A DNA stretch of 64,000 nucleotides from a virus (lineage: Duplodnaviria > Caudoviricetes). The notes under the pieces are model-generated. The model searched no databases. It had not been told where the DNA came from and saw only the letters and a list, made by a program, of their open reading frames with translations. The position numbers and the translations under genes were made by a program. This document shows, in pieces, positions 1 through 64,000 of this stretch. Numbering within the stretch: position 1 is the stretch's first letter; every line of letters begins with the position of its first letter. The stretch lies in the IMG/VR virus record IMGVR_UViG_3300037541_000451, positions 1 through 64,000 of that record. One strand, given 5' to 3'.

Positions 1-97
1 TGTCTTTTTCATAGATAAAGCTATCGCCAATCTTTAAAGAATTAAATGTAACTTTATTCTCGGTTGTCGCTTGTTCTTCATTACCTGAGGTTTTCAT
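1..97 (-). CDS. hypothetical protein, runs off the window edge
   Basis: ATG at 97, open frame MKTSGNEEQATTENKVTF... to position 1. Confidence 0.5.
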   Translation of the reverse strand, partial: MKTSGNEEQATTENKVTFNSLKIGDSFIYEKD

Positions 98-110
98 TTG
101 AGTTTTTTTC

Positions 111-149
111 AAAAAAAAAAAAAAAATAGGGTTACTCATAATAACCCTA
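111..149 (-). terminator. intrinsic terminator with 16-nt T tail
   Basis: 8-bp stem TAGGGTTA/TAACCCTA (127-149), then T16 on the minus strand (A run 111-126), just after the stop at 154. Confidence 0.75.
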
Positions 150-153
150 ATTT

Positions 154-378
154 TCAAGCCTTGATAAACTTCGTTTCTGCCACTTCAAACTTGATTGGTT
201 TGTTTTTGGCGATTTCGGGCAGAGCATTCATTTGAATGAGCTCTTTTCCGTTATCATCTAAAAATTCAATTTTCATACCTGAAAATTTCGAATGAGTTCC
301 GTCAGGATTGCTCAATTCGAATTCTTGAGGCGTAACGATAATTTTCGAGACGTATCCAAGAGAAATATTTGCAGCCAT
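154..378 (-). CDS. hypothetical protein
   Basis: ORF track 154-387; likely start is ATG 378, which overlaps the upstream TGA (TGATG). Confidence 0.65.
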   Translation of the reverse strand: MAANISLGYVSKIIVTPQEFELSNPDGTHSKFSGMKIEFLDDNGKELIQMNALPEIAKNKPIKFEVAETKFIKA

Positions 379-479
379 CAAATCCACCCTTTAAACATTG
401 CGAAGCAAGACACAAGAAACATAATGAGTGCGACATAGTCATACCCATTTTCCTTAATTTCTTTTTCGATGAAGTCCAT
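378..479 (-). CDS. small membrane protein (33 aa)
   Basis: MDFIEKEIKENGYDYVALIMFLVSCFAMFKGWI; fills the gap between neighbours, stop overlaps the next ATG. Confidence 0.5.
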   Translation of the reverse strand: MDFIEKEIKENGYDYVALIMFLVSCFAMFKGWI

Positions 480-490
480 TTAAAGTCCTT

Positions 491-685
491 TCAGATTGTT
501 GAAAGATTCACAAAAGCTTTCAGAGTCATCAGATCTTCTAATTCAAGCTTGGTTTGCTCCCAGGCCGAGTCAAATTTATCTAACCACTCCTTTAGGCTTA
601 CTCTTCGTTTTTGACGCTCTAACTGTGCTAAGTTTCGTTTTACACGGATGATAGCACGCTCTACAGACACAAGTTCATTGCTCAC
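491..685 (-). CDS. hypothetical coiled-coil protein
   Basis: ORF track; AAAGG upstream; same strand as neighbours. Confidence 0.6.
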   Translation of the reverse strand: MSNELVSVERAIIRVKRNLAQLERQKRRVSLKEWLDKFDSAWEQTKLELEDLMTLKAFVNLSTI

Positions 686-747
686 TTTAAAATACCTTTA
701 AACAGTGTTGTTGAAAAGCAGTTTAACGACATGCCTAGGTCTTGTCA

Positions 748-1044
748 TCAAAATTTCTTTTCTAGCATCTTTATTACTTCATCTTGTTTTTCAACAAGAT
801 GAAGCAATTCATTTCTCGTGCAATCTGTCACTGCTCTTTTCATGAAAGATCTAATAACTTGTTGTTGTTCTTCTACCAAGCGTAGAATTATATCTCCAGG
901 AAAATCTTCGGGATACGCATCAACCAAAGCAAAGAATTGCTTATAGTTGAAAATCCCAAGACCTGTCACTTCAACCATATTATCATGGTTGATAAAGATA
1001 TAATTCCACCTGCAGGAAACTTCATCTGATCTCACGAGCGCCAT
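748..1044 (-). CDS. hypothetical protein
   Basis: ORF track; strong SD AAAGGAG upstream. Confidence 0.7.
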   Translation of the reverse strand: MALVRSDEVSCRWNYIFINHDNMVEVTGLGIFNYKQFFALVDAYPEDFPGDIILRLVEEQQQVIRSFMKRAVTDCTRNELLHLVEKQDEVIKMLEKKF

Positions 1045-1071
1045 GTCAACTCCTTTGGTTGAGATTCAGTT

Positions 1072-1132
1072 GTGAAAGACCATCGGCCCCGAAGGGCCTA
1101 GGTTTCGGCTAGTTAAGCCTCGTCAGTTTCAC
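1072..1132 (-). ncRNA. hammerhead ribozyme (type I)
   Basis: Stem I GUGAAA/UUUCAC; core CUGACGA; stem II GGCU/AGCC; GAAA; stem III ACC/GGU capped by GGCCC-UUCG-GGGCC; GUC cleavage triplet (cut between 1078 and 1077). Confidence 0.85.
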
Positions 1133-1251
1133 TTGCAGTACCAAGCATTTCCTGTACACCACACACTCAAGTCAAACTTGGAAACAATCTCATCAAAGCA
1201 TGCTTCAGTAATTTCAACATGCTTGCCGTGTTGTATTCTGAAATACCTCAT
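1129..1251 (-). CDS. small hypothetical protein (40 aa)
   Basis: SD AAAGGAG then MRYFRIQHGKHVEITEACFDEIVSKFDLSVWCTGNAWYCK; the stop lies in hammerhead stem I. Confidence 0.55.
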   Translation of the reverse strand: MRYFRIQHGKHVEITEACFDEIVSKFDLSVWCTGNAWYCK

Positions 1252-1296
1252 TTGAAATCTCCTTTGGTTGAGGTTTGACTATAAGCTTTTGCTTAT

Positions 1297-1315
1297 CATA
1301 TAAGATACCGATTTT
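1297..1315 (-). promoter_or_regulatory. candidate phage-RNAP promoter, copy 1
   Basis: AAAATCGGTATCTTATATG; related copies at 1777-1795 and 60686-60704; intergenic and upstream of an SD. Confidence 0.55.
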
Positions 1316-1322
1316 TCCGCAA

Positions 1323-1763
1323 TTATTCTTTATAAAAATGATGATTGTTCCAAGACCCTAAGTAAGTAAGTTTCTTTCTCCAGTAGGGCTTCACATAATC
1401 AGCATGGAAGTGCGTAGCATTTTCGAATTTTAAAGGTATTCCGAGCAATCCATTATATTGATTTAAAGTTAACATCGCTAGATAATCATAAGTTTCTTTT
1501 GCAATTTTCTTTTCTTTGTACAGTGTCCAAGAAAATTGATTCTTTTTAAAGATAGTTGAACAATAATCTTCATCTTTAGTTCTATTAAACACTACTTGAT
1601 TTACAATCAAAATGCCAACAACGCCTTCGCCGATAGCTTCATGATATATATTTTTGACAAGACAATCAAGCTGGTTTTTAGGAATACCTTTAAGATCTTT
1701 AAAACTCTTTTGATAGTCTAAATCTAAAGGACACATCAAAAGCAATATGATAATAAATCTCAT
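1323..1763 (-). CDS. cell wall hydrolase, SleB/Hydrolase_2 family
   Basis: NIYHEAIGE, FSW and ATHFHADYVKPYW...HHFY motifs; hydrophobic N-terminus. Confidence 0.85.
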   Translation of the reverse strand: MRFIIILLLMCPLDLDYQKSFKDLKGIPKNQLDCLVKNIYHEAIGEGVVGILIVNQVVFNRTKDEDYCSTIFKKNQFSWTLYKEKKIAKETYDYLAMLTLNQYNGLLGIPLKFENATHFHADYVKPYWRKKLTYLGSWNNHHFYKE

Positions 1764-1776
1764 ACAGAGCTCCTTT

Positions 1777-1795
1777 CATATAAGATACTATTATT
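1777..1795 (-). promoter_or_regulatory. candidate phage-RNAP promoter, copy 2
   Basis: AATAATAGTATCTTATATG followed directly by SD AAAGGAG. Confidence 0.5.
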
Positions 1796-1816
1796 TTCGA
1801 AAGGACACCCGTTGAG

Positions 1817-2068
1817 TTATTTGCCGTTGTCAGACGAATTAAGTTTAGGGTCACGTAATCTCAAATTAGCTTTGACAGACTTTCCGCCTTTTCTTATAGG
1901 CACCTTATGATCGATATGCTTTCCCTCTCTTTTTATTTCAAGAGAGTCATAAAGACGCCTTGCCTTTTGTCTTTCATGTTGATTGCTGTCAGGACCAGAT
2001 TTACCTGTCTTTAAATCTTGTTGATACTCTTTTTTATAATCACGTTTTCTATTAGGATTATACGGCAT
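1817..2068 (-). CDS. small HNH-like nuclease
   Basis: HIDHKVPIRKGG...NLR motif. Confidence 0.6.
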   Translation of the reverse strand: MPYNPNRKRDYKKEYQQDLKTGKSGPDSNQHERQKARRLYDSLEIKREGKHIDHKVPIRKGGKSVKANLRLRDPKLNSSDNGK

Positions 2069-2077
2069 ACTTACTCC

Positions 2078-2104
2078 AAAATAAAACCCCGCATTAGCGG
2101 GGTT
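2078..2104 (-). terminator. intrinsic terminator after the lysis genes
   Basis: AACCCCGC/GCGGGGTT stem then TTATTTT on the minus strand. Confidence 0.75.
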
Positions 2105-2109
2105 AATTA

Positions 2110-2214
2110 TTACTTACTTTTAAGACATTTTCCAGCTGCTTTACACTTCGTCGGTGTAGGACAGCCCTTGCAAGGTTTAAAAGTTTCTTGCTTTTTGATA
2201 TGAATCATTATCAT
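2110..2214 (-). CDS. small Cys-rich protein (34 aa)
   Basis: MIMIHIKKQETFKPCKGCPTPTKCKAAGKCLKSK; TAATG overlap with the endolysin stop. Confidence 0.6.
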   Translation of the reverse strand: MIMIHIKKQETFKPCKGCPTPTKCKAAGKCLKSK

Positions 2215-2540
2215 TAACATTTCCTTTCGTAATGCGGAGCATCTTTAAATTTCTTCCAGAACATTCCTGCTCTGTTTAATGGACTAAGACTTTCCCAGAA
2301 TCTTCCGATCTCTTCTGGGTAAACAATCTTACCGTCTTTCGTAAAGTAAATATCAATGGCGCATTTCTTCAAATGCATTGAATCCATTGTTTTAGATCTT
2401 CCGGTTTTGATATAAATCTCTTGTTGTTCAGGAGTCCTTTGAAGCTCACCTAATCGAGCCTCATAGCCTAACTTAAAGGCTTCTTGAAGCAGCCTTGCTA
2501 AATCTTTTGCAAATGCTTCTTGATGTTGTCCTAGTGTCAT
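2214..2540 (-). CDS. endolysin, peptidase M15 (L-Ala-D-Glu peptidase-like)
   Basis: R-T-x-E-x-Q, SMH...AIDI and DAPHYE zinc-peptidase motifs. Confidence 0.85.
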   Translation of the reverse strand: MTLGQHQEAFAKDLARLLQEAFKLGYEARLGELQRTPEQQEIYIKTGRSKTMDSMHLKKCAIDIYFTKDGKIVYPEEIGRFWESLSPLNRAGMFWKKFKDAPHYERKC

Positions 2541-3073
2541 TCTTTCACCTTGTTAACGATAGTTTTAAACGTTTCGTCTTTGTTTTGAGAAGATCTACTA
2601 GAACCATAAAAGAACTGTAAGATTTGACTAATTATTGTACCTAACAAAAAACCCAATATTGTATCAGCAAATCTTATATTGTCTTGCGGAATAGTGCCAA
2701 ATGTAATGAATCCAATATAAATAGCACCGCACATAGACCAGAAGATTGCTAAATAGTAAATAAACCTTTTCGAGAAAACATCATATTGTGCTAATGCGGC
2801 AGCTTGTAAATTACGAGCATTTTGAACATCAGCTAAGTAGGCCTTTTCAAGTTCCGCATTAATTTTATTATCTTCTTGCTTTAATCTTAAGAGCTCTTCT
2901 TCGTGCTCCATTTCAAACTGTTGTAATTTTAAAAGATCTTCTTGGCTTAAAGAAGCTTTATCTACATCTACTCCAGTTTTCTCTTTTACCCAGTCCTTAC
3001 CTTTTGCAAGGACTGCGTTTCCGATTAAATTTAAACCAGCACCAATTAAGGGCTGCAGGATCGCTGGTAGCAT
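2537..3073 (-). CDS. holin-like protein (3TM, GTA-holin type)
   Basis: C-terminal hydrophobic helices ending FFYGSSRSS; directly upstream of the endolysin. Confidence 0.65.
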   Translation of the reverse strand: MLPAILQPLIGAGLNLIGNAVLAKGKDWVKEKTGVDVDKASLSQEDLLKLQQFEMEHEEELLRLKQEDNKINAELEKAYLADVQNARNLQAAALAQYDVFSKRFIYYLAIFWSMCGAIYIGFITFGTIPQDNIRFADTILGFLLGTIISQILQFFYGSSRSSQNKDETFKTIVNKVKE

Positions 3074-3143
3074 ATTTATCCTTATTAATGATTGTATAAC
3101 TAACTACATTTACCTAATGATACATTAAGAGGGGGGCGTCCTT

Positions 3144-3162
3144 GGGTTAATCTAACGGGTTT
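3144..3162 (-). promoter_or_regulatory. 19-bp boundary motif, copy 1 of 4
   Basis: minus strand AAACCCGTTAGATTAACCC; also at 22031, 48849 and 60731. Confidence 0.55.
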
Positions 3163-3177
3163 GCTAAACAAATATTT

Positions 3178-3432
3178 TCACGAATAATACACAAAGGGTT
3201 TCTTACGAGTATCTCTAAAATCAAAGTCTTCTAAATCTTTTAATCCAACAGCAAGCTTCTCGAGAATATGACTTTGTGCACGCTGAGGTCTATTCATTAT
3301 AAGTCTAACCCACCACATTGGTGTAGTCATCCAATGATACTCAGTATCTTTATGCTTCTTCAGTTTAGGTTTATTTCTTTCTTCTGTATTATAAAGCAAT
3401 GAACTTGGTTTGTCTTTAATTGTTCTTGACAT
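3178..3432 (-). CDS. hypothetical protein
   Basis: ORF track; SD GGAGG upstream. Confidence 0.7.
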   Translation of the reverse strand: MSRTIKDKPSSLLYNTEERNKPKLKKHKDTEYHWMTTPMWWVRLIMNRPQRAQSHILEKLAVGLKDLEDFDFRDTRKKPFVYYS

Positions 3433-3470
3433 TTCATTACCTCCAAAACTCTGAAAATAAATGCGAAAAA

Positions 3471-3623
3471 GCGGGCCGAGGTGACGCCACTGGTCACCCC
3501 ATGGCCCTGGTACTACTTGCTGAGAAAAGTGTCAAGGTGGTCCAACCTGCTACCCTGCCGGGGGAACCTGCTACCCTGCCGGGGGAGCCTGCGCATGGCA
3601 ACGTGGCCGCGTCTCTCCCACCC
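3471..3623 (+). repeat. GC-rich dispersed element A, with an internal 21-bp tandem duplication
   Basis: Aligns by eye with elements at 27546-27667 and 60761-60885; AACCTGCTACCCTGCCGGGGG at 3544-3564 and 3565-3585. Confidence 0.6.
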
Positions 3624-9729: not shown

Positions 9730-10313
9730 TAGATTCTCCCCCATTTAAGTCTTATTTTTCCAGTACCTTGATAGACATGATCAAAAGCAGAATCCGATGG
9801 ATTTATATTATTTCTCATGAAACTTCTACTATTATAAAAAGCCTTAGTAGCTTCTAAGTTAGCAATAGGACTCGCACAATTTATTGTATACATTACTTCT
9901 CCTAATTCTTGAGTTTCAATTTGATATCTTGTAAAATCTATTTGGCCTCTGTACATTAATAGTACATCATTTATATTAGTGATAGGAAGATTCGTATCAG
10001 GGTTTATGAACACTAATAAAACTTCAATGGGACAGCCTACTAAACCTTGCTCAGATAAGAATCCAAATTCGAAATCTGGATCTGTTAATCCGATGCTATA
10101 CTGCTCGCGATCAACTTGTGTGGAAATCCTAGGTGGATCTAATATAGCTATTTTAGAATTCGCTGTAAATATTCTTCCATCACTTAAAGTAATATCTCTA
10201 AAGTAAGTTGAAAGTCTTTTAAATGTATTGCCCTTTTTAATTTGTAAACAATAGAAAGCTTCAATATTTGGTTTATTTAAAATATTTATTTGTGTTTGCG
10301 TTAATTTTATCAT
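9729..10313 (-). CDS. tail tip protein (minor tail / hub component)
   Basis: Lies between the distal tail and hub genes; ends in the KWG motif. Confidence 0.6.
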   Translation of the reverse strand: MIKLTQTQINILNKPNIEAFYCLQIKKGNTFKRLSTYFRDITLSDGRIFTANSKIAILDPPRISTQVDREQYSIGLTDPDFEFGFLSEQGLVGCPIEVLLVFINPDTNLPITNINDVLLMYRGQIDFTRYQIETQELGEVMYTINCASPIANLEATKAFYNSRSFMRNNINPSDSAFDHVYQGTGKIRLKWGRI

Positions 10314-22030: not shown

Positions 22031-22049
22031 GGGTTAATTTAACGGGTTT
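22031..22049 (-). promoter_or_regulatory. 19-bp boundary motif, copy 2 of 4
   Basis: AAACCCGTTAAATTAACCC 3 nt after the RNAP stop, followed by hairpin TACACC/GGTGTA and a T run. Confidence 0.55.
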
Positions 22050-22052
22050 GAG

Positions 22053-25000
22053 TTAGCCGACTCCATACCAGCTAAAATCATTTGAAAAACCATCTGGTAT
22101 TTTCTTTAGGATATCATCTCTATTTAAAATATCAGATTCCTTAAGTACCTTTCCACCTACACGTGACTTTCCTGGAATAGGTATTAACCCTAACTCAATT
22201 GCTTCATTTAAATATTTATCATACAGTTCTTTCGAGAGGCCTCTCGCGCGCATTTCTTCTAGAGTTAAAACAATTACATTATTTTTAAGCATTTCAGCAT
22301 ATAGCTGTCTCAAGCCTTTTCTGGCTTCAACCATGTCAGATGCATTCGCGAAGAAAGCATCGTGAATAGTAGAAGTTGGAATTTTATTTTCTTTACCCCA
22401 TAAATGAAATCTTTTTACAATCACAGCATCATTAGAATGGTTTCCGTTAACGGCATAAGCTGTTCTAGCTTTACCTATATCAGCAATATCATTAATCTTT
22501 CCAGACTTATTTATAACTTGTTGCCACCAAGTTGCTTCTGTTTTCTGAGGTATTTGTAAGATATTTGTAGTCCAGTTTCCATATTTGTCCTTGTAAATTA
22601 GTTTTTCTTCGAATGTTTGTGTGAAGTTCTGCTCAATTGTTTTGCCATCAAAGTTTACCCAAGGTACATTAGTCCAACTCTTAGGTAGCTTGTTAGCATA
22701 TAGCACTTCAAATTCTGTAATAGTCTTTAATTCTAAAAACTCTGTTTTTAAATACTTAGCACCTACTCGTCTTGTTTCGGGAGTTTCTACACCATAAATG
22801 ATTTCACTAAGAGTCCCATTAGGCTTCCAAAAACCAAACCTTTTTAATATCTTTTCACTAAGTGGCTCACCAGCTTTTAAGCCAAAAAGTTTGCTAACAC
22901 TATCAGGTAAAACATAACCTTTCTTTTTGGTGCCTAAAAGCTTAATTTTGCTTATTGTTTTCCAATCAAAATCACTATTTGATGGTTTTGCATTGGCTAA
23001 ATAATCTTGTGCTAATCTACCGAAGTATCTGGTAAAATCCTTTAAAATTGGAACTTGTTCACCAAGATACTCACTCATTATTTTTGCGATAGCTTTGAAG
23101 TCCTCTGGAGTAATTACTTTATCATAAGATTTAGTCATTTTTTCAACAAAGTCACGAGTCTTAGGATCTAAGAAATAAAGTTGTTCTAAGATGTCATCTC
23201 CGGGGTCTAAACCTTTATTAAAGATATCTTTTACATTTTGTCTTAATTGCCGTAATTCTTCTGCTGTTTCTTCGTCAAACTTTTCGTATCTTGCTATTCT
23301 AGCAGATATTTCATTTAAAACTTGATCTCTTTCTGATGCTTTTACTACAAGAACATTTTCTTGTTTGTCAAGTATTTTTGCAAGTTTACCTTCAACATTT
23401 AATGCGCCTGTTCTTTCACCAGCGCCATAGAACGTCCATTAAAGATAGGAGTAGCCTTGATCACCACGTTTAATACGTTTAGTGATAGTAGAATGATTAA
23501 TGCCAAGCATTCTACCGGCTTCACGCGTTGATTCAAATATGCCAAACGGAGTGGAAACTGCTTTTCGTAAATGATGTGCGTTTCTTCCATCTGCCTCTTT
23601 ACCTTGAATTACTTCATCTTTCCAGTAATAACCTTTATGTAATATACTCTTGCTACCAGCTTTTCTAGAAATGACTGCTTTAACAACTTTATGTGCTTTT
23701 GCCGCAGCCGCAACAGTCGGGAATTCACCTAAAGGAGTAATTACAGCTCTTGCTAGTAATGAGTTATCACCACTAACAGCTTCTTTAGCTAATTGATACA
23801 TTAATGGTGATAGTTTAACGCCATCTCTAGAGCACATTGTTGCATATGCTACTTTTAAACCTTTTACTTCTGGGAAAGCTTTCATTAATAACCAATGAGC
23901 AAGTAAGTGACATCTCGCGTTCAGATAAATTAAGTTTGATGAATCGTCACCGCCATCCATACATTTTGGAATAATATGATGACGCTCATAATAACTTTTT
24001 AATGGCTTTAGTTGGAAGCCGTGTTTTTCAATTAAAGCCAAATAATGCTTTTCGTAATCCATTTTAACTCCTAATGTATATTACTATACAGATCAGACTA
24101 TATCTTACGTCGTCACCTTTTCAGGATAGTACGTCACCGCGCTTCGGAATTAGCATAATTCCTACGAACTTCATCATCTGGTCTAGATGGTATGTTCTAG
24201 TCGTTGCACCTTCAAAGGTATCCCTACCTAAGCTTGGCTCAGGATTGCCCTTTAAGAAGGGTTTCCCTGAATTCACGGTGTTTATACATGGCAACATTCT
24301 ACCATGTTTTGAGCTTTAGCAGCTTTTCGTAAATCTTTTTCCGAAAGTCCTAATTTTTGATTCAAAAGTCTAAATCTAGGATCGTTGTAAGTTGCAGCTG
24401 CGATTTCGTCGTAAAGTCTTTTCTTTTGATTGGTTGGAATGACATTTGACAGTTCCGCCAATTGTTTATTTCTAGTTGTTAAAGCAATAATCTGAGCACC
24501 AGATGAAGAAGCATCTTGCTCGAGTGCTAATGAAATATCATAATCTTTAAGTCTAGCAAGAGAGTTTCTGCTATAAGAGCCTTCCAGGTAATTATCAATT
24601 TTGGCAGTTTCTAGAGCTAATCTTAAGAATTTATTAAGATCTTCTCCATCGATTTTTTGAAAAATCTCTGATTCTAAAATAGCTCTAATGTCATTAGGCT
24701 TACTTTTAAGCATATGATTTCCAAGTTTTATCATTTCTGGACGCCATTTTGCTGCAATTTTTTGTCTTCCAGTTAAAGTCAATGAGTTATAGTTACCTTC
24801 AAAGTAATCACTTAGTCCACCTAAAAAAGATCCAATTTGATCTTGCAAATTATAAAAACCTTCTTCACTAAATTTACGTGAAATTTCAGTATTTAAAAAT
24901 GGTCTAAAAGTTTCACCTGATTGAGGACCAATTAAACCACGATCATATATTCTAGCCCGATGGTCTATAAACGGATGGTTGCTAAAAGCTTTATTTTCGG

Positions 25001-27545
25001 CTGTAAGCCACTCCATAGCTTTAATCCGTTCATATGAGTCACCTCTAGAAGCCATATATTTACGATATTCATTTAAGTCATTATACTTCTTAGCCTGACC
25101 TTTATCGTCCTCAAAATATAAAATCTTTTTTACAAAATTAAGATAATCTTTATCAATCTTATATTTACTTTTAGCTGCCCAATTTAAAGCCTCCACAAAG
25201 TCTTTATCAATAAATTCTTCTGGAAAATCACTGAAACTAGAAGTCGATGTTATTGGTATTCTAGTGTCTTCGTAACCTAAAATACCACGATCGATAAAAT
25301 ACGTTTTATAACCTTCTCTAAACACTAATCTATTTTTGTCTTCAGTTACAGAAACACGTAATCCTAATTCAACTTTTCTTACTAATTTAGCGTATTCTTG
25401 TATTCTTGGATCTACAATTCGAATATTATAAGATAATGTATCATAATATGGCCCAAAATAAGCACCACTCATCATACTTTTCATTCTTCTTTTTTGAACA
25501 CCAAAAGTTTCAATTTCAAAGAACTTTTTAACGTTCTTAGCCTCTAAAAGACTCATCCCTAGCTCGTACCATTTACGTCTATTACCATTTATATTAGCAA
25601 GATTATATAAATCACGTCCTAAAGCAACAGCAAATTGATCGCGATCTGGGCTATCAGCAAGGCTTAGCCTGTGAGCAAACTTTAAATAAAATTGTTGTAG
25701 ATCTCTGTCAGAGACTCTGTTTCGAATTATTAAAGGAATTTTGTAATCGAAAACATTGCGTAATTCATTAGCAATTCCAGGGGCTATTTTGTCTTCCCAT
25801 CTGTTTTTCTTTAAAATATTTTCAATAAATTCGTCATGTAATTCTTGCAGTTGAGTGCTTCCCAAAACAGGATCTATGTAATTATCTTGTAAAAGCTTTT
25901 TAAGAAAATCAGAGTCTTTTCGCAGCTGTGTTTCTACGAAATCAGAAACGTTCATAACATCAAACTTGATTTGGCCTTGAACAACTGCTTTAAAGTTAGA
26001 CCAAATTTGATTATTAGATCTGTATCTGCCAAAAATGATTCTTAAGTTATCAGCAACTACGGCACGTTCGTTTATACTCATACGATCTGCTAAAGATTCA
26101 ACAATATCTTTAATAAAGGCTTTATCTCTATCTAATAGTTTTTCACTTTCATCAATGAGTCTAATATTATTTGCTAAAACAGCTGGATTTGGTTGATACA
26201 AACGCACATCTTCGTATCTACCAGTTATAGGGTTAAATTTGAGTTGGTCCTCACGAGGAGGACTAGCTAGAACTCTATTTTTTACACCTCTTTTTACATT
26301 TAATAGAGTACCTCTATAGTTGGTCAAAGACAATGTTCCATTAAGCTCACCAGATTGTAATAAATAATAATCTATTAAGCGTTTCTTTAATTCATCATTT
26401 CCAATAAAATCATCCGGTGTTGATGCACCTAGCTGTAATGCATCTAACTTTTCTTTAGCTAAAGCAAACTTTTTAGTGTCATTTGGTAAGGTGTATCCAC
26501 TATCACTTAAAGCTCTGAGCTCCTTGATTCCAACAGATGCACCGTCTGGTGCTGTAAACCTATCTACAGTAAGCTCTCCGCTACGAAGGAGTTCAACCTT
26601 TTGATAATCACCAAGATGTTTTAATTGGATCTCTTTGGATTGTCTGCTTAACCATGTATTATAAGACTCTCTTAAAGGTGTCTGACCGTCATAATATACA
26701 ATCTGTTCTTTAGTCAAGTTTTCAATATTGCGTTTGCGGACTTGAGCTGCACCTTCTAATTTAGAGATATCATTCCAGTTCTTAAAAACAGGTATTGTTG
26801 TAGATCTACAATGAAAGTGCGCAGGTGGTAAGTGTTTTCTATCATCTATCGGATAAATATTTCCATCACGATGTGCACATAAAGGAGTGGTTCTAGAATC
26901 TAAAACAGCTACATATTGCCAGCCTTGTAAAGCTTTTTCGTTAGCTTTATAGACTTCTTGATCTGTTTGTGCAGTAACGGATGTAACTGCTGTTACAACT
27001 AAAGCTCTAGACTGAGATCTGGTAATGCTGTGAATATTATTCTTACGAACATCTAAAGCAATTTCATCAATTGTTTTATTATCTGCAATACCTTTTCTAA
27101 TTACTGCTTCTAGTCTCTTTCTTTCACTTTCACCAACTCCACCCCAACCTTGTAACAAAGTTCTATCGTTAAAAAGCGGTCTTTCTAAAACAATTTCTTC
27201 AGCAACTCTTTTGGCAGGTCGTTCTGCTCTCCAAATCTTACCCATAGATGTTTCTATGGTTTGATAGGTATAAGAGAGCTGATCTGATACTAAGTCTAGT
27301 AAAGATCTTTTTGAAATGCTATAAGCTTCTCTATAAGTTTTTTGTAGTTCTTGATCAATAGCTTCACGAAGTTTTTCAAAGCCTTTTTGAGATAAACTTG
27401 CTTCTCTTATTAGCTTATCCACTCTTACTTCGTGGCCGTCAATTACAAGTGATACTTTGTTATTTAATCTTTTTTCGTACAAGCGGATCATTGCCGCTCG
27501 ATCAATGGTTCTATCATATATGTCTGTATTCGCATTGTTAGCCAT
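22053..27545 (-). CDS. MuF/gp7 head-morphogenesis domain fused to a T7-like RNA polymerase; exons 27545-24301 and 23436-22053, 1542 aa after splicing
   Basis: MuF: WQYVAVLDSRTTPLC...PPAHFHCRST. RNAP: DHRARIY, motif A QDASSSGAQII, motif B RKAAKAQNMV|TFYG across the intron, motif C HSND...IHDAF. Confidence 0.9.
23437..24300 (-). mobile_element. group I intron (864 nt) in RNAP motif B
   Basis: 5' exon ends in U and pairs with the IGS (ACAUGGU/GCCAUGU); P10 AGAAUGUU/GACGUUCU; core strings AATTCAGGGAAAC, GGCAATCCTGAGCCAAG, GTGCAACGACTA, AAGATATAGTCT; terminal G; removal restores the frame. Confidence 0.9.
23439..24062 (-). CDS. intron-encoded HNH homing endonuclease
   Basis: ERHHIIPKCMDGGDDSSNL...H...H; two C-terminal NUMOD1-like repeats (TPLGEFPTV, TPFGIFEST). 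Confidence 0.88.
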   Translation of the reverse strand: MDYEKHYLALIEKHGFQLKPLKSYYERHHIIPKCMDGGDDSSNLIYLNARCHLLAHWLLMKAFPEVKGLKVAYATMCSRDGVKLSPLMYQLAKEAVSGDNSLLARAVITPLGEFPTVAAAAKAHKVVKAVISRKAGSKSILHKGYYWKDEVIQGKEADGRNAHHLRKAVSTPFGIFESTREAGRMLGINHSTITKRIKRGDQGYSYL

Positions 27546-31753: not shown

Positions 31754-34700
31754 TTAATTGTAAAACATTAAAAAATTTCCAAAAGATGTGATAACTGATA
31801 CAGGTGGAGTTTTAAATGTCCACCCTAAAGTGCCATTATTAGTTGAATTAGTGCCTGCATACCACTTATCTGTTGGAGGATATGCACGGATCCCAGTAAT
31901 TGTTAAGAAATCTGAAGACACCGGACCTAAACCAGTAAGGATTAGTGTTGCTGGTGATGTTGCTGAGGTACCTGTGATTGTTAAAGCCCGGCTAGAATCA
32001 ATACCCGTGGCAGTAAACGTACCGACTTTTTGTGTTGTATTCCCCAGTGAAAGGGCTTTGAGTCCACTTAAATTGCTACTGATCCTAGTGAATGTATTGT
32101 TACCAGTTAGATATATTACACCTCCACCACCGCCATTATTAAGACCACCACCCTCAATAATTAATTCATTGAATATATTATTACCGGTTACTACAATGGG
32201 TCCTGTGTTACCAAATTTGAGATTAATATTAGAATAATCTAGATTATTTCCAGCGAAAGTATTTGTTGTAAATGCAAAACTTGCTGTGCTAAGTTGAATG
32301 GTTCCACCATTTCCAATTACTGATACATTTGAACCTGTTATATTCCAACGTGTCCCACCAATTTGCGTAAATATTGAAAAGGTTCCTGATCCGATATTAA
32401 TAGTTCTTGCAACGTCTCCTGTGGAAGTGAAATTTCCACTGGTGAATGAAACGTTGTAACCATTACAATTCAAAGTCCCTGCAGTTAGTGTAATACCGGA
32501 AGATCCGACAGTACCTATAGAAAGGGCATCCTGCAATACAACTGATCCGCCAGGAGAATTAATAATAACACCAAACGTGCTAAAGGGAACGCCTGAAGTT
32601 CGAATGCTTTGCGTTGTTCTGCCAGCAAAAGTTACGTTTATACTTGAACTTGTATAAGATATTCTAGAACTTGTAATCCAATCGCCATGTATTGTGAATT
32701 GTGGAGCAATAGTCAAACTGCTATTTGTTCGTGCAGAAGCGTCAAAAGTTCCAATGTTATACGAAGTTCCTGAAGCTATTACCGCTTCACCTCCTGAATT
32801 ATTATCAATAATTGCTGTATCTTGGGCAAGAGGAAAATTAACAAGATTTGCTGTTCCACCGCTCATAGTGGCCCAATAATTTCCATTCCAAGACACAAAA
32901 TCGCTCGGTCCAACCCAATATACTGTCTTTGGTGCGGTAAATGTAATTCCAGAGTTGCCTTTGCAGTTCCCAATGCGCGTACCAGATGCAGGCGCAGCAG
33001 CACCAGCAATGGTGATGTCGCAGAAGTCAACGTCGGTCATTGATACAGCAGCGGCTGTAATGGTACGGGTGGTGCCGATGGTGTCGCTGCGGCAAAAATG
33101 CCGCATAGTAGCGTCAGTTCCTGCGGAGAAAGTGAGCGTACCTGTGACAGTTTGGTTGGCGGCAAGGACTATGTTCTTAAAGACAGCAGAGGTGATGCCG
33201 GTGAAGGACAGATTGTTAAAGCTGTTGGTTCCGTTAAGAGTTACAGTGCCTGTAGAGGTGCTTGTGAAGGCAACGTTGTAAAAGGTTTGATTGTTGCCGA
33301 AGAAAGTGGGGCTTGCGTTAGAGCAATTGATTTGAGCCGTGCCTGAAGCAAAAGTCAAATTTGCTCTAGAAATTTCACTTGTCCCAAAACTAAAAGCTGT
33401 TGCAAGTGACAACGTAATAGTCCCGGATCCGAAATTAACGTTCCTTGGATTTTCATTATCAGAACTAAAAGATCCAGCAGTGAGATTATATGTGTTGCAA
33501 TTAAATGTCCCATTTGCGACGCTAACTGCGGCTGCGCTGTTATTCAATGCACTACCAAGTGTCCACTCACATCCTACTCCGTTGATTCCAAGTGATGATG
33601 ATAAGGCAACACCATTCGTCGTTAGCGTCAACCCAGACGTAGATCCCGACAAAGTAATAGCGCCTGTGTACGTCCTTGTCAGCCCCGTCGCAGGCAGCGT
33701 CACGTTGCCGTAAATGCCGTCAATAGCAGTGCTGCCTGCCAATGTCACGTTGCCGCTCGCTGGTCCTGCAATGGTCAACGACTTCATCCTAATGCCACCA
33801 GTGACAGCATTCACCGTGGCTGTGTAGGCTGTGGTGTTGGACAAACTGTCAAAGACAACATCATCATGGCTGCGAGGTACAGAAGCGCCAGAAGCGCCAC
33901 CAGACACAGTAGACCAACGAGCGGTGTCGCTCCAGTTGCCTGTGCCGCCAACCCAGTAGCGTGTGCTGTCGGCTGGCTTGGCTGTGCGGTAGACAGGCGC
34001 TGCCGCCGTGCCTGTGCTGTTGGCACCGGCATAGAACTCACCTAGGCTAGTGGCAGCGAATCCAATCGAGCCCATAGCAAGGTAGTCAATGCCGCTGGTA
34101 CATGCTCCTGCGAGAACATGGCTGGTGCCTGTGCCAGTAAGAGTGACCACATTACCCACCGTCCCTGTGACAGTCCACTTGCCAAAAGTCTGGTTTGTAG
34201 TGCCTAACGCAATGGTATGCGCTACGGTCTTGGTGCTGGCGAGTTCGGTAAATTGATTGTTAGTGATGATTGTTGTTGTACTGGTGCCTGTAGTACCGCC
34301 GATGGTAAGTTTGTTGTAAGACTTAAATCCACCAATAAAAGTTCTTGAATCCGTAGTATTAGCTGATAAGAGTATATTTGCTGTACCTTTAATAAGTGTA
34401 AGACTCGTATTAACGTTCCATACGTTATTACCTTGCGCTGCTGTAAGTGTCCATAACCCCGTCCCCATTTTTAAGGTTCTTGTCGCAGAAAAAGAACTAA
34501 TGAAGACTCTTGTCGTGACATTGAATGTTACAGCATCAAAAGTCCCCGATTCTAGTGCCAATTCTGTGTTACCACCATTCAGTGTTATTGCATCAGCAAG
34601 TAACACTGTACCATTGATGCTATCAATGTATACATTGCAACTAAAAGCATTACCATTGCTAGTGATTGTCTGGCTGCCGCGCTTGGAAAACGTTATTTTG

Positions 34701-36985
34701 CTTGTCGTACTTGAGCTAATGTTTCCATGTTTCCAATCACCATGTATACGAGGTAAAACACCTCCAGTTACATTCAACGTCATCGCGCTGGTTCGCGCAG
34801 AAGCATCAAATGCGCCTATATTCCACGCCCGTTCTATTGTTACCGTCCCTGCACCACCCGTGTTGTCAAACACCGCCGTGTCCTGAGCCAGCGGGAAGTT
34901 GTTGATGTTAGGCGTGCCGCCAGAAGAAGGCGCCCATGCCGTAGCAGACCAGTTCTGCGTGCCGGCAAGATTCCAATAAACAGTCTTTGCCGCAGGAAAC
35001 GTGATGCCGCTGTTACCGCCACAGTTGCCTGCACGGGCAAGAGAAGACCCGGCAGCAGCCCCTGTGATGGCAATGTCTCTGAAGTCGCAGTCTGTGGCAC
35101 TGAGCGTGCCTACGCTGAGCGTGCGGGTGGTGCCAAGGGTGTTAGAGCAAACGAAGATGCGACGGACGGGAGAGGCTCCGGCAACGGTGAGGGTGCCGGT
35201 AATGGTTTGGTTTGCGCTAAGGGGCAACACAGTCAGACCCGCAGAAGAAGGCGCAGTTACTGACAGATTGTTGAATATATTTGACCCTGTTATAGTTATA
35301 GAGTTGACGAAAGCACTGGTAAATGAAAGATTGTAAAAAGTTTGATTAGCAAGATTGAGTTGTGGGGCATCAGCAGACGAAACAATTGTTGATGTGCCTG
35401 CATCAAATGTTAAATTTGTGCTGTCTAATGAAATTGTAGGATTTGGAAAATTACCAAGTGTCAATGTCACCGTACTCGAACCAAGCTTAATAGTTCTAAC
35501 GTTAGAATTATTAGACACCAGCCCCGCAGCCGTAACGTTGAAGTTCTTGGTATCGAAGGTGCCGTTGTTAATAAAAAGGCGAAAATTAGGAGGGGTAAAT
35601 ATCGAGAGCGCATCCGCAAGTTGAACAGTCCCTCCAAGGGTATCAATCACGATATTCCAAAACGTCTTTCCTGCGCTGGTGATGGTCTGAGTATTCCGTC
35701 CAGAGAACGTCAGCTCGGACGATCCGGACAGTGCCGTACCGGAGCCGTTCTTCCAATCTCCGTAGATTGTGAATCCGTTAATAGTCAGGTTCATGGCAGT
35801 AGTCCGACTGGACATATCCACTGTACCTGTATAAGGCACAGCAGAGTTCATCACTACTTGGCTAACCTCTCCTGCGTTAGTGAACGTGGCTGTGTCTTGT
35901 GCCAGCGGGAAAAAGTCGGTGCTGGGCGTGCCTGTGCTAGTATCAGACCAGCCATTGGCACTCCAGTTATTAGACCCGGCAAGATTCCAATACACCGTCT
36001 TGGGCGTGCTGAAGGTGATGCCTCTGCAGCCTCTCAAGTCGCCAACACGCGTGCCGCTGATGGGCGCGGCTGTGCCAATAACGTAGATGTCTCGGAAGTC
36101 TGCGTCGGTCAGGCTTGGGGCGCTGTTGATGGTGAGGGTTTGGGCTAGTCCGTAAGTTACACCACGGAACCAGACTCGGCGGTTACCTGCTGTGCCGGTG
36201 GTGGAGAGGGTGCCGTTGATGGTCTGGCGGGAGTCGAAGGTTATTTGACGGACTCCGGCAGAAGAAGGAGCGGTAATAGACAAATTATTGTAAGTAGCTA
36301 ATCCACCTATTGAGTGAGTATTTGCGCCGGTTGATGTATACGAAACATTATAGAATGTTTGATTGCCACAAGAATTAAAGGCACTCGCGGCAGTAAATAT
36401 AATTTGCGATGTTCCTGCATTAAATGTTAAATTAGTAGCGTTTGCAAAATCAATATTTAATGACAGTGTTACTGTGCTGCTGCCCAGATTTATTGTTCTA
36501 AGATTAACATTACTAGATTGAAAAGAAGCGGCCGTAACATTAAAATTTGCCGTAGTAAATGTTCCTTGAGTGACGGTTATCGCGCCTGAAGATGTCAAAG
36601 CATCACCAAGCGTCACAGTGATACCAGCCCCGTTGATCGTCAACGGTCCGATAGTTTTCCCTGCCGTGGTCAGCGTAGCCGTTGCATTCAACGTCAGCGT
36701 GCCGCTGTACGTCACCGTCATCCCCGCCACAAGCGTGATACTACCAGACACGGTAATGGCTGAGCTACCCGCCAACGTTCCCGTAAATCCTGTGCAGTTG
36801 ATGGACTTGGCACCAGTGTTGCCGGTAGAGATGGTGCAGGTGCCGGTGGACAGGTTCGTAAAGAACACATCATCAGCACTAGTAGGGACGCTTGCTCCTC
36901 CAGCGCCACCAGACGCAGTAGCCCACTTCGTCCCAGCAGTACCGTCCCAGTTTGCTGTGCCACCGACCCAATATCTATCTGCCAT
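31754..36985 (-). CDS. large repetitive beta-solenoid fibre/adhesin protein
   Basis: 1743 aa, G/T/S/A/N-rich; repeats RYWVGGTxNW (x2), FPLAQDTA (x3), DFxDI...KTVYW (x3). Confidence 0.75.
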   Translation of the reverse strand: MADRYWVGGTANWDGTAGTKWATASGGAGGASVPTSADDVFFTNLSTGTCTISTGNTGAKSINCTGFTGTLAGSSAITVSGSITLVAGMTVTYSGTLTLNATATLTTAGKTIGPLTINGAGITVTLGDALTSSGAITVTQGTFTTANFNVTAASFQSSNVNLRTINLGSSTVTLSLNIDFANATNLTFNAGTSQIIFTAASAFNSCGNQTFYNVSYTSTGANTHSIGGLATYNNLSITAPSSAGVRQITFDSRQTINGTLSTTGTAGNRRVWFRGVTYGLAQTLTINSAPSLTDADFRDIYVIGTAAPISGTRVGDLRGCRGITFSTPKTVYWNLAGSNNWSANGWSDTSTGTPSTDFFPLAQDTATFTNAGEVSQVVMNSAVPYTGTVDMSSRTTAMNLTINGFTIYGDWKNGSGTALSGSSELTFSGRNTQTITSAGKTFWNIVIDTLGGTVQLADALSIFTPPNFRLFINNGTFDTKNFNVTAAGLVSNNSNVRTIKLGSSTVTLTLGNFPNPTISLDSTNLTFDAGTSTIVSSADAPQLNLANQTFYNLSFTSAFVNSITITGSNIFNNLSVTAPSSAGLTVLPLSANQTITGTLTVAGASPVRRIFVCSNTLGTTRTLSVGTLSATDCDFRDIAITGAAAGSSLARAGNCGGNSGITFPAAKTVYWNLAGTQNWSATAWAPSSGGTPNINNFPLAQDTAVFDNTGGAGTVTIERAWNIGAFDASARTSAMTLNVTGGVLPRIHGDWKHGNISSSTTSKITFSKRGSQTITSNGNAFSCNVYIDSINGTVLLADAITLNGGNTELALESGTFDAVTFNVTTRVFISSFSATRTLKMGTGLWTLTAAQGNNVWNVNTSLTLIKGTANILLSANTTDSRTFIGGFKSYNKLTIGGTTGTSTTTIITNNQFTELASTKTVAHTIALGTTNQTFGKWTVTGTVGNVVTLTGTGTSHVLAGACTSGIDYLAMGSIGFAATSLGEFYAGANSTGTAAAPVYRTAKPADSTRYWVGGTGNWSDTARWSTVSGGASGASVPRSHDDVVFDSLSNTTAYTATVNAVTGGIRMKSLTIAGPASGNVTLAGSTAIDGIYGNVTLPATGLTRTYTGAITLSGSTSGLTLTTNGVALSSSLGINGVGCEWTLGSALNNSAAAVSVANGTFNCNTYNLTAGSFSSDNENPRNVNFGSGTITLSLATAFSFGTSEISRANLTFASGTAQINCSNASPTFFGNNQTFYNVAFTSTSTGTVTLNGTNSFNNLSFTGITSAVFKNIVLAANQTVTGTLTFSAGTDATMRHFCRSDTIGTTRTITAAAVSMTDVDFCDITIAGAAAPASGTRIGNCKGNSGITFTAPKTVYWVGPSDFVSWNGNYWATMSGGTANLVNFPLAQDTAIIDNNSGGEAVIASGTSYNIGTFDASARTNSSLTIAPQFTIHGDWITSSRISYTSSSINVTFAGRTTQSIRTSGVPFSTFGVIINSPGGSVVLQDALSIGTVGSSGITLTAGTLNCNGYNVSFTSGNFTSTGDVARTINIGSGTFSIFTQIGGTRWNITGSNVSVIGNGGTIQLSTASFAFTTNTFAGNNLDYSNINLKFGNTGPIVVTGNNIFNELIIEGGGLNNGGGGGVIYLTGNNTFTRISSNLSGLKALSLGNTTQKVGTFTATGIDSSRALTITGTSATSPATLILTGLGPVSSDFLTITGIRAYPPTDKWYAGTNSTNNGTLGWTFKTPPVSVITSFGNFLMFYN

Positions 36986-39564: not shown

Positions 39565-40145
39565 CTTGTAACTTCTCTTTCTAATATAATATTACCATTT
39601 AATAAAGGGATGATATTATTATTAAGGACAACTTCTAAACTGTAAACAGCATTTGTAAAAGTAAAATTTTGAGTAACAGAGCTAGAAATTAAAAGATCAA
39701 TTGTTTTATTGATATTATCAACTGCAATGCCACCATTTTCAGTGGTCATGCTATGCAACACATTTGAATTATTAATAGTAGCTCTAATTTGCATTCTAGC
39801 AGTCATGCCTGACATATTAACAGGTTCATAATACTGAAGTATACCGCCAGATATATATGTAGCAAATTCAGTAGCATTAACTGCATTTATATTAATTAAG
39901 TCAGCATTTGAGTTAATAGCCGTTTGCCAGCCTAGCTTATTAACTTCTTCCATTCCTTTTACACCAGAGATATTAATTCTCCAGCCTTCAGGAACACCAT
40001 GACCAATTGCGGTAATACCAATCGGGGCTGTTTTGGCTATATTTGTAATAGTTTTGTAAATTAATTTATCGGATTCCCAACGAAGTGGATACTTAAAAGT
40101 AGATCCTTGATAAATTTTAAAATCAATTCTTGCAGGCTCTGACAT
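39561..40145 (-). CDS. fibre-attachment (BppU-like) protein
   Basis: IYQGSTF...GMTARMQIR pattern. Confidence 0.55.
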   Translation of the reverse strand: MSEPARIDFKIYQGSTFKYPLRWESDKLIYKTITNIAKTAPIGITAIGHGVPEGWRINISGVKGMEEVNKLGWQTAINSNADLININAVNATEFATYISGGILQYYEPVNMSGMTARMQIRATINNSNVLHSMTTENGGIAVDNINKTIDLLISSSVTQNFTFTNAVYSLEVVLNNNIIPLLNGNIILEREVTR

Positions 40146-40219
40146 ATTATCTCCTAAATTTATAATAAATTTCCCAGAATTTATCTTTTAAATATTGAAT
40201 TACTTTTTTCATTATTACC

Positions 40220-40813: not shown

Positions 40814-40880
40814 ATTTTCTCCTAAAGTTGGCGGCCGACATTTCTATCGGCCGCCCTTTTGTTAAATCTGCGCTACCAAT

Positions 40881-41129: not shown

Positions 41130-41138
41130 GGTTGCTCC

Positions 41139-46061: not shown

Positions 46062-46110
46062 ACCAATTCCTTTATTATTGATTACGGATCTACGTCCGCT
46101 TAATCTATGA

Positions 46111-56312: not shown

Positions 56313-56347
56313 TTTAAGCTTTCTAAGATAAAATTATTTGCGTTTAA

Positions 56348-60059: not shown

Positions 60060-60638
60060 TCACGCAGGCGTAATTTCCGTTGAAGCGGTCTTGGCAGCCT
60101 TTTCAGCAGCCATCTTCGCACGGTAAGCAGCAAGACCTTCAGCGGCCTTAGGATTAAGTTCACGCTTGACTTCTCCAGCGCTATAAGCTGACATGACTTC
60201 ATCCTTGTTCGCGATGATCCAGTCAGAAAGATCAGTGTTATTCTCGCTAGCAGCCATCAGAGTGTTACGAGCAGCCGTCTTCTTCTCATCATCATTCATA
60301 CGCTTGACGCTAGGCCAGCGGAATGAATCAAGGATTGCAGCGGCGTTCTCTTGCAGGAACACCAGATCCTTGTCGTTGATGGTCTTAAGATGATCAAGAG
60401 CCTTATTAAGCTTCTTGTACTCAACCTTCGTAACACGGCGGATTTGACCGACCTCGAAAGCCATTTCAACTGTCTCTTGGTTTTCGATCAGCCAATTTAC
60501 AAGATCTTTATTGTTCTTAGTAAGACGCAGCAGCGCCTCTTCAATCTTAGGACGGCGAAGATAATCCAGAGCCTCCTTCTTGGTTTCGAACATCTTACCA
60601 TCGGGAGTCGTGAATACTTGCTTCAATTCCATTATCAT
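60060..60638 (-). CDS. conserved early protein, probably abundant
   Basis: Higher GC and biased codons like the capsid gene; directly behind promoter copy 3. Confidence 0.8.
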   Translation of the reverse strand: MIMELKQVFTTPDGKMFETKKEALDYLRRPKIEEALLRLTKNNKDLVNWLIENQETVEMAFEVGQIRRVTKVEYKKLNKALDHLKTINDKDLVFLQENAAAILDSFRWPSVKRMNDDEKKTAARNTLMAASENNTDLSDWIIANKDEVMSAYSAGEVKRELNPKAAEGLAAYRAKMAAEKAAKTASTEITPA

Positions 60639-60685
60639 TCCTTTAGCGCACAGCGCTATTGTTTAAGAAATCGTAGCACATGCTA

Positions 60686-60704
60686 CATATAAGATACCGC
60701 ATTT
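60686..60704 (-). promoter_or_regulatory. candidate phage-RNAP promoter, copy 3
   Basis: AAATGCGGTATCTTATATG. Confidence 0.55.
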
Positions 60705-60730
60705 TTCGTACGGCTACTTATTCAGAATAA

Positions 60731-60749
60731 GGGTTAAGTTAACGGGCTT
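60731..60749 (-). promoter_or_regulatory. 19-bp boundary motif, copy 4 of 4
   Basis: AAGCCCGTTAACTTAACCC. Confidence 0.5.
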
Positions 60750-63960: not shown

Positions 63961-64000
63961 TTAAATATCAATCACTGAACGAAAACCTACTGCTCTTCCA

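Follow-up and report, generated by a model that had tools for sequence, protein, structure and literature searches.

Which RNA polymerase starts early transcription in a phage that carries a polymerase fused to one of its head proteins? The question is raised by the virus record IMGVR_UViG_3300037541_000451, whose first 64,000 nucleotides (nt), here called the window, belong to the siphovirus genome of a lake phage. The minus strand codes every gene in the window, and the hallmarks of a siphovirus are present (a 1,978-aa tape measure protein, a tail-tip protein and a DUF4055 portal-type protein). A first-pass annotation, made from the sequence alone, had proposed three promoters with T7-like architecture and had assigned them to the phage's own MuF-RNAP, a T7-type RNA polymerase (RNAP) joined to a MuF head domain. 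We find that the three sites belong to a longer conserved element, which we call motif A, and that in related phages this element stands upstream of the gene for a second RNA polymerase (RNAP2). Based on the comparisons below, we are confident that the three sites are genuine promoters of the early region and are conserved. It is probable that a phage single-subunit polymerase reads them, and we lean towards the capsid-delivered MuF-RNAP as the reader, which would use motif A as early promoters and thereby switch on RNAP2.

The core of motif A is the 12-mer GTATCTTATATG. A search of the whole window found exact copies at 1297-1308, 1777-1788 and 60686-60697, all on the minus strand, against 0.00 expected from 100 dinucleotide-preserving shuffles of the window, and no copies with one mismatch. 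The three sequences quoted in the first-pass annotation therefore exist, as the reverse complement of the plus strand, with the minus strand being the coding strand; the span it gave for them, 1297-1795, leaves the third site (60686) far outside. All three are intergenic, on the coding (minus) strand and 5' of a Shine-Dalgarno (SD) sequence and an ATG (at 1251, 1763 and 60638), as had been claimed. Site 2 (1776..1800, minus strand, covering -23 to +2) is the first in the direction of transcription; its upstream element is a weaker variant (TCGAAAAT...), and the SD sequence AAAGGAG lies directly downstream, followed by the ATG at 1763. Site 1 (1296..1320, minus strand) is the canonical copy, GCGGAAAAATCG-GTATCTTATATG-A, while site 3 (60685..60709, minus strand) reads ACGAAAAATGCG-GTATCTTATATG-T and lies 25 nt downstream of a copy of a second motif, motif B, which is described below.

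The first-pass annotation had suggested a motif search over relatives. Relatives were found via the 1,087-aa MuF open reading frame (ORF), which led to 80 IMG/VR loci at 62-81% identity, and motif A was compared in 14 near-complete related IMG/VR genomes with 36 unique sites. The 12-mer is identical in 13 of these 14 genomes, in 2-4 copies each and always on the gene strand, and a reversed control pattern had 2 matches in the same genomes at up to 1 mismatch. There was no copy of GTATCTTATATG in the 1.08 Mb around the 80 MuF-RNAP genes. The extended element is (T/C)GCG(G/C)AAA(A)-N3-R-GTATCTTATATG-A, and flanks outside the search pattern are also kept: G, C and G at -23 to -21 are found in 30, 35 and 36 of the 36 sites, A at -19 to -16 in 27-35 (29-35 at -19 to -17), a purine at -12 in all 36, and A at +2 in 35. 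No conservation was seen beyond the extended element in the 36 sites. When the upstream element was searched with a free core, the cores showed either 0 or at least 4 mismatches with no intermediates, and in one genome of 48% GC (G012) the same upstream element stands before two core variants, ATATCTTATATG and CCATCCTATATG. The core is identical across phages of 35-48% GC.

A scan of the whole collection with the pattern AAA-N5-GTATCTTATATGA matched at least 114 stretches. The extended element is present in at least 69 further loci among the matches listed, and the other 45 matches, in which only the core occurs and lies inside unrelated coding sequence, served as a control set. The lake version of motif A was not found in GenBank phages, and Rfam has no family match at or beside the motif A sites. 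An Rfam search of 1-3500 at E ≤ 0.1 gave no hammerhead ribozyme family at 1072-1132; its two hits, unrelated and below threshold, lay in other places.

The layout of the element is GCG(G/C) at -23 to -20, AAAA at -19 to -16, a variable spacer, GTATCTT at -11 to -5, ATAT at -4 to -1, and G at +1. The first-pass annotation had drawn a shorter element, which ended short of the GCG at -23 to -21 and the A-tract at -19 to -16 that the relatives keep. It had also placed an 8-bp specificity block in the middle; the first two bases of that block (CG or TA) are variable, and the invariant block is GTATCTTATAT at -11 to -1. No conserved inverted repeat was found within -23 to -1, and site 3 alone has fortuitous upstream pairing.

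We infer that the sites are transcription starts. The +1, which the first-pass annotation had called uncertain, is placed at the G of TATATG, at 1297, 1777 and 60686, because a stem running from the very first base resembles a 5'-terminal protective stem-loop. The minimum free energy hairpin begins at the final G of the 12-mer or at the next base in 27 of the 36 sites, and in a wider set this is the case for 40 of 82 family sites versus 6 of 32 chance matches (Fisher p = 0.005). Both hairpins quoted earlier for the window are present: ATAAGC-AAAA-GCTTAT at 1296-1281 would form from +2 of the site 1 transcript (AUAAGC-AAAA-GCUUAU, 1281..1296, minus strand), and GTAGC-ATGT-GCTAC at 60686-60673 from +1 of the site 3 transcript (GUAGC-AUGU-GCUAC, 60673..60686, minus strand). 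Hairpins of other sequence occupy the same position as the 1281..1296 hairpin in relatives, and stem sequences vary from site to site while the upstream DNA block is fixed. Sites that have no hairpin run directly into an SD sequence (AAAGGAG), several of them after 3 nt. In relatives a GC-rich hairpin and T-run terminator directly abuts the first motif A site. In the window, the intrinsic terminator that ends the late/lysis operon (2085..2104, minus strand), with an 8-bp GC-rich stem and a T-rich tail, is upstream of the motif A cluster.

The second polymerase, RNAP2, is a homologue of gp080 of the roseophage DSS3_VP1, with a strong match to T7 RNAP (E = 1.6e-43) and to PF00940 (E = 1e-63). 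In 12 of 12 genomes (G001-G012) its gene shares the strand of motif A and lies 1.2-3.8 kb beyond the final site of the motif A cluster, and it was found in 32 of the 69 extended-motif loci (among the matches listed) versus 0 of the 45 control loci (p = 3e-9). In the related genome G001, a motif B copy precedes the capsid-tail genes and another precedes the lysis genes, which are followed by a terminator, a motif A site, a gene for a Hydrolase_2 protein, a second motif A site and small ORFs of no known family (ORFans). A hairpin with a long T-run comes next, followed by a 44-aa ORF and RNAP2, a motif B copy, about 14 kb of small ORFs, a motif B copy and then the third motif A site, more small ORFs, and finally a motif B copy ahead of the replication genes. 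The order of genes and motifs in the window is the same as in G001.

Between the late terminator and RNAP2, G001 has no motif B or other conserved signal, and in G012 the SD sequence lies within 10 nt of the T-run, leaving no room for another promoter. Given that no other conserved signal is seen upstream of RNAP2, the reader of motif A must exist before RNAP2 does, and it should therefore be either the host RNAP or an enzyme brought in by the virion.

The hairpin and long T-run ahead of RNAP2 are found in G001 (36794-36850), in G012 (~38390-38437) and in 18 of 32 IMG/VR loci. The T-runs range from T9 to T31 and follow a GC-rich hairpin and a pyrimidine-rich stretch. In the window this feature (111..149, minus strand) is a terminator hairpin at 149-127 with a T16 run at 126-111, and the short operon headed by motif A ends there. 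Such a stretch might make the polymerase slip, or it might act as an attenuator adapted to the first polymerase. The ORF that comes next, with an ATG near 97, is cut off by the window edge on its way toward the expected RNAP2 gene. The record extends at least 13.7 kb (13,729 bases) past position 64000, and the layout of the relatives suggests that the map is circular and that RNAP2 lies just beyond the window start, past the ORF that runs off position 1. Two metagenome scans were made for the part of the contig beyond 64000; one gave no match, and the other only a 1.4-kb fragment of a relative.

Motif B has the consensus (G/A)AACCCGTTA-RN-TTAACCC. Each genome has 4-5 copies in syntenic positions, which include those ahead of the capsid, lysis and replication genes and one close behind RNAP2. 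In the window, the copy just upstream of site 3 is CCCGTTAACTTAACCC (60731..60746, minus strand), and further minus-strand copies, at 3144-3159, 22031-22046 and 48849-48864, precede the lysis, capsid and replication genes. G001 has copies at 11181, 33571, 40133, 54262 and 62717, and G012 at 8621, 31285, 41887 and 70741. From these positions, motif B (AACCCGTTARNTTAACCC) is a candidate for the RNAP2 promoter class.

The RNAP2 genes themselves show some irregularities. In G006 (39595-42348, plus strand) RNAP2 matches in two in-frame pieces (query 1-536 and 536-761) within one 926-aa frame, which suggests that about 170 aa have been inserted in frame at residue 536, perhaps as an intein. The RNAP2 gene of G009 has one in-frame TGA.

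The virion-borne candidate is the MuF-RNAP. In the window its gene is split, with exon 1 (24301..27545, minus strand) coding for the MuF head domain and the N-terminal two-thirds of a T7-type RNA polymerase, and exon 2 (22053..23435, minus strand) for the specificity-loop region and motif C (IHDAF). The G001 gene has no intron, and when aligned to the window it is interrupted precisely at 24301/23435 (window 23436-24300 versus G001 9791-9793), which fixes the boundaries of the intron in the window. The G001 protein matches Pfam MuF (3.8e-13) and RNA_pol (7.5e-13; PF00940, 48.5 bits), and the catalytic motifs A (DASSSGAQ), B (K...YGAG) and C (IHDAF) are present. We modeled residues 440-1542 of the G001 protein with AlphaFold from 31 sequences (predicted local distance difference test, pLDDT, 75.7; predicted template modeling score, pTM, 0.71). 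The model superimposes on T7 RNAP residues 37-883 with Z 29.1 and a root-mean-square deviation of 3.6 Å over 524 aa, compared with Z about 25 for mitochondrial RNAPs and Z 19 for the mini virion RNAP (mini-vRNAP) of phage N4. Together with the Pfam matches and the motifs, the predicted structure indicates that the MuF fusion polymerase is a full-length enzyme of the T7 type in which the N-terminal promoter-binding domain is present, and this domain content appears compatible with a duplex promoter. The putative specificity-loop segment is nearly invariant across motif A genomes. As head proteins associated with the portal, MuF proteins deliver fused cargo into the cell (PMC5512222), and for this reason it is reasonable to think that the MuF-RNAP is packaged in the virion.

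We assign motif A to the MuF-RNAP, at the strength given above, because the reader must precede RNAP2, because the sites are few, and because DSS3_VP1 has a three-copy homologue of motif A beside 16 SP6-like promoters. The infection would then proceed as follows. The 1,540-residue MuF-RNAP would be built into the head via its MuF domain and would exit the capsid with the DNA. It would initiate at the 2-4 motif A sites behind the late-operon terminator, and the short early messenger RNAs, protected by their 5' hairpins, would give a secreted cell-wall hydrolase and small ORFan proteins. By reading through the hairpin and poly-T attenuator, the MuF-RNAP would transcribe the RNAP2 gene, and RNAP2 would go on to use AACCCGTTARNTTAACCC, which precedes the modules for replication, capsid and lysis. 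Thus, the earlier assignment of the sites to the MuF-RNAP stands in part: a ~24-bp element with this strand, position and conservation behaves like a site for a phage single-subunit polymerase, but the assumption of one polymerase does not hold for the family, which also encodes RNAP2.

The homologue search found only two cultured relatives, DSS3_VP1 and EBPR siphovirus 1. DSS3_VP1 (NC_055826) encodes an unsplit MuF-RNAP (gp108) and the second RNA polymerase gp080, which are ~30-34% identical to the lake-phage enzymes. Its genome has 3 copies of GAGAAAACTAAG-GCATCTATAATGA, the core of which shares 9 of 13 positions with motif A; with its G, the element is GCATCTATAATG followed by A. Two of the three GCATCTATAATGA copies have GAGAAAAC upstream, one has a terminator directly upstream, and one has a downstream hairpin. 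The arrangement also recurs, with a pair of copies 447 bp apart heading the early region, upstream of gp080, and a distant third copy.

DSS3_VP1 has a second class of repeats, consisting of 16 gene-strand copies of TAGG(G/T)(T/G)(G/A)CGTTAAAG(A)GGGG; a GC-rich 5' stem-loop comes after every copy. Their positions are 2243, 2334, 6581, 7409, 19203, 19238, 19327, 29397, 38534, 45927, 46394, 46552, 55099, 59197, 67002 and 73994. They precede portal, tail and nucleotide-metabolism genes and start appearing only after the RNAP gene. Their TAGGTGAC is, we presume, a match to the SP6 promoter, and the 16 copies look like classic T7/SP6-type promoters, for which the T7-like RNAP2 would be the natural reader. 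If RNAP2 suits the 16-copy class, the 3-copy class is left for the MuF enzyme or the host. In the lake phages, motif B shares CGTTAAA with this 16-copy class. Phages with deoxyuridine (dU) DNA such as PBS2 and AR9 bring their own polymerase. The DNA of DSS3_VP1 likewise carries dU in place of dT (PMC8323127), which by analogy favours a polymerase delivered by the virion. We did not find the roles of the polymerases or these motifs discussed in the papers on DSS3_VP1 and DSS3_PM1 that we read. DSS3_PM1 is 98% identical to DSS3_VP1 at the polymerase pair and so is not an independent replicate. The other cultured relative, EBPR siphovirus 1, has an RNAP that is 59.6% identical, and in its partial 54-kb record we found neither motif A nor RNAP2; this is uninformative, since the record lacks the early region.

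Pelagibacter phage Kolga (MT375529), a cultured siphovirus and a natural contrast case, has, at 33563-35851 and 45152-47053, an RNAP2 homologue that is 27% identical and a 633-aa MuF protein without the polymerase module. We found no motif A-like site in Kolga, where the RNAP gene lies behind a 650-bp divergent intergenic region, and in its early region sigma-70-like matches are no commoner than in shuffles. This pattern parallels that of the relatives of Thermus phage P23-45 that have no virion RNAP and also no AT-rich motif (PMC10770324), but as it comes from a single distant clade it gives weak support.

An alternative is that the host RNAP reads motif A as conserved early promoters, perhaps overlapping an operator, in which case the MuF-RNAP would have another role or other sites. 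We consider this unlikely. In T7 it is the host RNAP that makes the phage polymerase, and the host enzyme exists before RNAP2, as the reader of motif A must. TA-rich hexamers can be found: some sites have TATGAT at 16 nt from TTGCGG, and the DSS3_VP1 element contains a perfect TATAAT. A conserved recognition partner would explain an identical core in phages of 35-48% GC. However, the invariant GTATCTT would then sit in the sigma-70 spacer, which is normally not conserved. The best sigma-70 reading, TTGCGG-16-TATGAT, fits a subset of sites only: the TTG is found in part of the sites, and the would-be -10 lacks its critical final T in ~40% of them (TATGAA). The "-10" boxes of the lake phages and DSS3_VP1 are out of register, and a sigma-70 scanner calls none of the three sites in the window, where sigma-70-like matches are no commoner than in shuffles. 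The dU-containing DNA of DSS3_VP1 (PMC8323127) is also a setting that argues against the host enzyme. Sigma-70 was accordingly rejected as the main account of motif A, given the invariant bases in the spacer, the hexamers limited to a subset, and the negative scan.

It is quite unlikely that RNAP2 itself reads motif A, in positive feedback, with the MuF-RNAP reading motif B or some other signal or the host RNAP starting RNAP2. Of the two enzymes, RNAP2 is the more closely related to T7 RNAP, the layout of motif A is that of T7 promoters, and RNAP2 is directly downstream of motif A in every genome checked. This would, however, leave a bootstrapping problem, as there is no other conserved signal upstream of RNAP2. 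In DSS3_VP1 it is the 16-copy class that resembles SP6/T7 promoters, and the motif A homologue has only 3 copies. Motif B, with the CGTTAAA of that class, precedes capsid, lysis and replication genes, and if the MuF-RNAP read it, the capsid and lysis genes would be transcribed first. That motif A is no promoter at all, but a binding site of a phage regulator or an RNA processing or stability signal of the early cistrons, is very unlikely: the copies are few and the hairpin after the sites could be an RNA element, but the motif is asymmetric, strictly oriented, placed right after terminators and laid out like a DNA element (an A-tract and fixed spacing), the hairpins vary in sequence whereas the block before them does not, some sites have the SD sequence after 3 nt and no hairpin, Rfam gives no match, and the early region would otherwise have no recognizable start.

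Several points weigh against the MuF-RNAP as the reader of motif A. The MuF domain is the sole ground for packaging of the enzyme. RNAP2 is far closer to T7 RNAP than the MuF-RNAP is (E 1.6e-43 versus a profile E of 0.003), and a T7-like promoter shape by itself therefore does not indicate the MuF enzyme. Both motifs and both polymerases are kept together in every genome checked, and Kolga, which provides the contrast, is one distant clade. The comparison of specificity loops gave no clean co-variation, as the changes in G012 recur in genomes with the canonical core; in the one genome that could be measured at full length, identity to G001 is 60% for the MuF-RNAP and 52% for RNAP2, which does not discriminate between the two. 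A terminator stands between the motif A operon and RNAP2, so that read-through must be assumed, and the RNAP2 gene of the window phage is outside the 64-kb window and is placed from the layout of relatives. An endolysin-like hydrolase, the product of the first gene behind site 2, would be an unusual early protein. The sequencing runs that hold this DNA are 11 lake-water DNA runs, with no RNA run among them.

Motif A resembles the 23-bp promoters of T7, T3 and SP6 (-17 to +6) in being contiguous, asymmetric and near-invariant and in ending at the start. Both have an A/T-rich upstream block, a recognition block at about -11 to -5, a TA-rich melting box at -4 to -1 and a G, which in motif A is the putative +1; transcripts would start with a stem-loop, as predicted here, and a T7-fold polymerase is encoded in the same genome. 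The sequence, however, is unrelated to those of T7, T3 and SP6, in agreement with the earlier suggestion of a new specificity, and the register is shifted ~2 bp upstream. Conservation extends to -23 (GCG), ~6 bp further upstream, with an A-tract at -19 to -16. Motif A has 2-4 copies heading the early region, whereas promoters of the T7 group are many and stand before middle and late genes, and its presumed reader, unlike those of the T7 group, is fused to a head protein.

The plan of the early region can be compared with that of N4, which has three early promoters for its virion RNA polymerase (vRNAP), gp50, and a relay from vRNAP to RNAPII (PMC4496689). In both, the early genes begin with ~3 promoters and include the gene of the next polymerase, and the first enzyme presumably enters with the DNA. 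The N4 promoters form hairpins in the DNA, with inverted repeats around a GC-rich loop centered at -11, and are used on supercoiled DNA with the host single-stranded DNA-binding protein (PMC4496689); the stem is of 5-7 bp and the loop of 3 nt, on the template strand. Motif A has no conserved inverted repeat 5' of +1. In structure, T7 RNAP (Z 29) is a better match to the MuF enzyme than the N4 mini-vRNAP is (Z 19). The carrier of the MuF enzyme is a MuF domain rather than the N- and C-terminal domains of the N4 protein, and the phage is a siphovirus. A hairpin promoter of the N4 type was rejected for motif A, whose conserved hairpin follows +1 and differs in sequence between sites. According to Iyer et al. 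2017 (PMC5512222), N4-like virion RNAPs are confined to N4-like phages.

P23-45 has a virion RNAP fused to the tape measure protein, with AT-rich pre-early promoters, and a non-virion polymerase, gp64, with GC-rich promoters (PMC10770324). It is likewise a siphovirus with two motifs, in which a polymerase fused to a structural protein is thought to transcribe the first genes, including that of a second polymerase. Its enzymes are of the two-barrel type, unrelated to the T7 fold, and the fusion is to the tape measure protein rather than to a portal-associated MuF protein; the assignment of promoters is experimental in P23-45, while that of motif A is inferred. The Naomviridae DSS3_VP1 and DSS3_PM1 have the same polymerase pair, a 3-copy element in the same position and a many-copy second class, and the core (in DSS3_VP1) differs from motif A at 4 of 13 positions. 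We see about an even chance that the lake phages, EBPR siphovirus 1 and the marine Naomviridae, a large and mostly uncultured group of siphoviruses, share an N4-like relay of two T7-fold polymerases, which would use a duplex 24-bp promoter and would need neither a DNA hairpin nor a host factor. We found no description of such a relay in the literature on the MuF-RNAP, on transcription in the Naomviridae or on two-polymerase siphoviruses.

The genes that the sites would serve in the window are small. The first gene of site 2 (1323..1763, minus strand) codes for a cell-wall hydrolase of the SleB type (146 aa; Pfam Hydrolase_2, PHROG endolysin), the N-terminus of which is hydrophobic and signal-like. 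It sits outside the lysis operon, behind the late terminator, and a homologue is at the same place in G001 (34878-35330). If the MuF-RNAP were also active late, before packaging, the lysis enzyme would be tied to the synthesis of the head protein. Between the late terminator and site 2 there is an 83-aa ORF (1817..2068, minus strand) that weakly matches HNH; it is absent at this place in G001 and in the fragment L254, which suggests that it is a free-standing homing endonuclease insertion. The site 1 unit has a 40-aa ORF (1129..1251, minus strand) as its first gene and a 98-aa ORF (748..1044, minus strand) that has no family match, typical of early ORFans. The site 3 gene is a 192-aa ORF (60060..60638, minus strand), also with no family match, that is kept next to the third site of G001. 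A possible degenerate fourth site, CGCAAATAATT-TTATCTTAGAAA (56320..56343, minus strand), has 4 core mismatches and is of uncertain status; it is intergenic, 8 nt before the ATG at 56312 (ORF 55794-56312) and downstream of a transfer RNA region.

The idea of a relay has precedents in N4 and P23-45; what is added here is the 24-bp element, its putative +1, the grammar of terminator and attenuator, the link to RNAP2 across the collection and a homologue in a phage that can be cultivated. Motif A followed by RNAP2 is a simple genomic marker for such phages. If the MuF-RNAP does read motif A, the polymerase and promoter pair, unrelated to those of T7, T3 and SP6, would be a candidate orthogonal expression system. 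A virion RNA polymerase of a new kind, fused to the portal-associated MuF protein, would gain a promoter that can be tested, and the sites would explain how RNAP2 is switched on. These 24-bp sites would then be the entry point of host-independent transcription in widespread freshwater and marine long-tailed phages, a group that would include the cultured dU-DNA roseophages.

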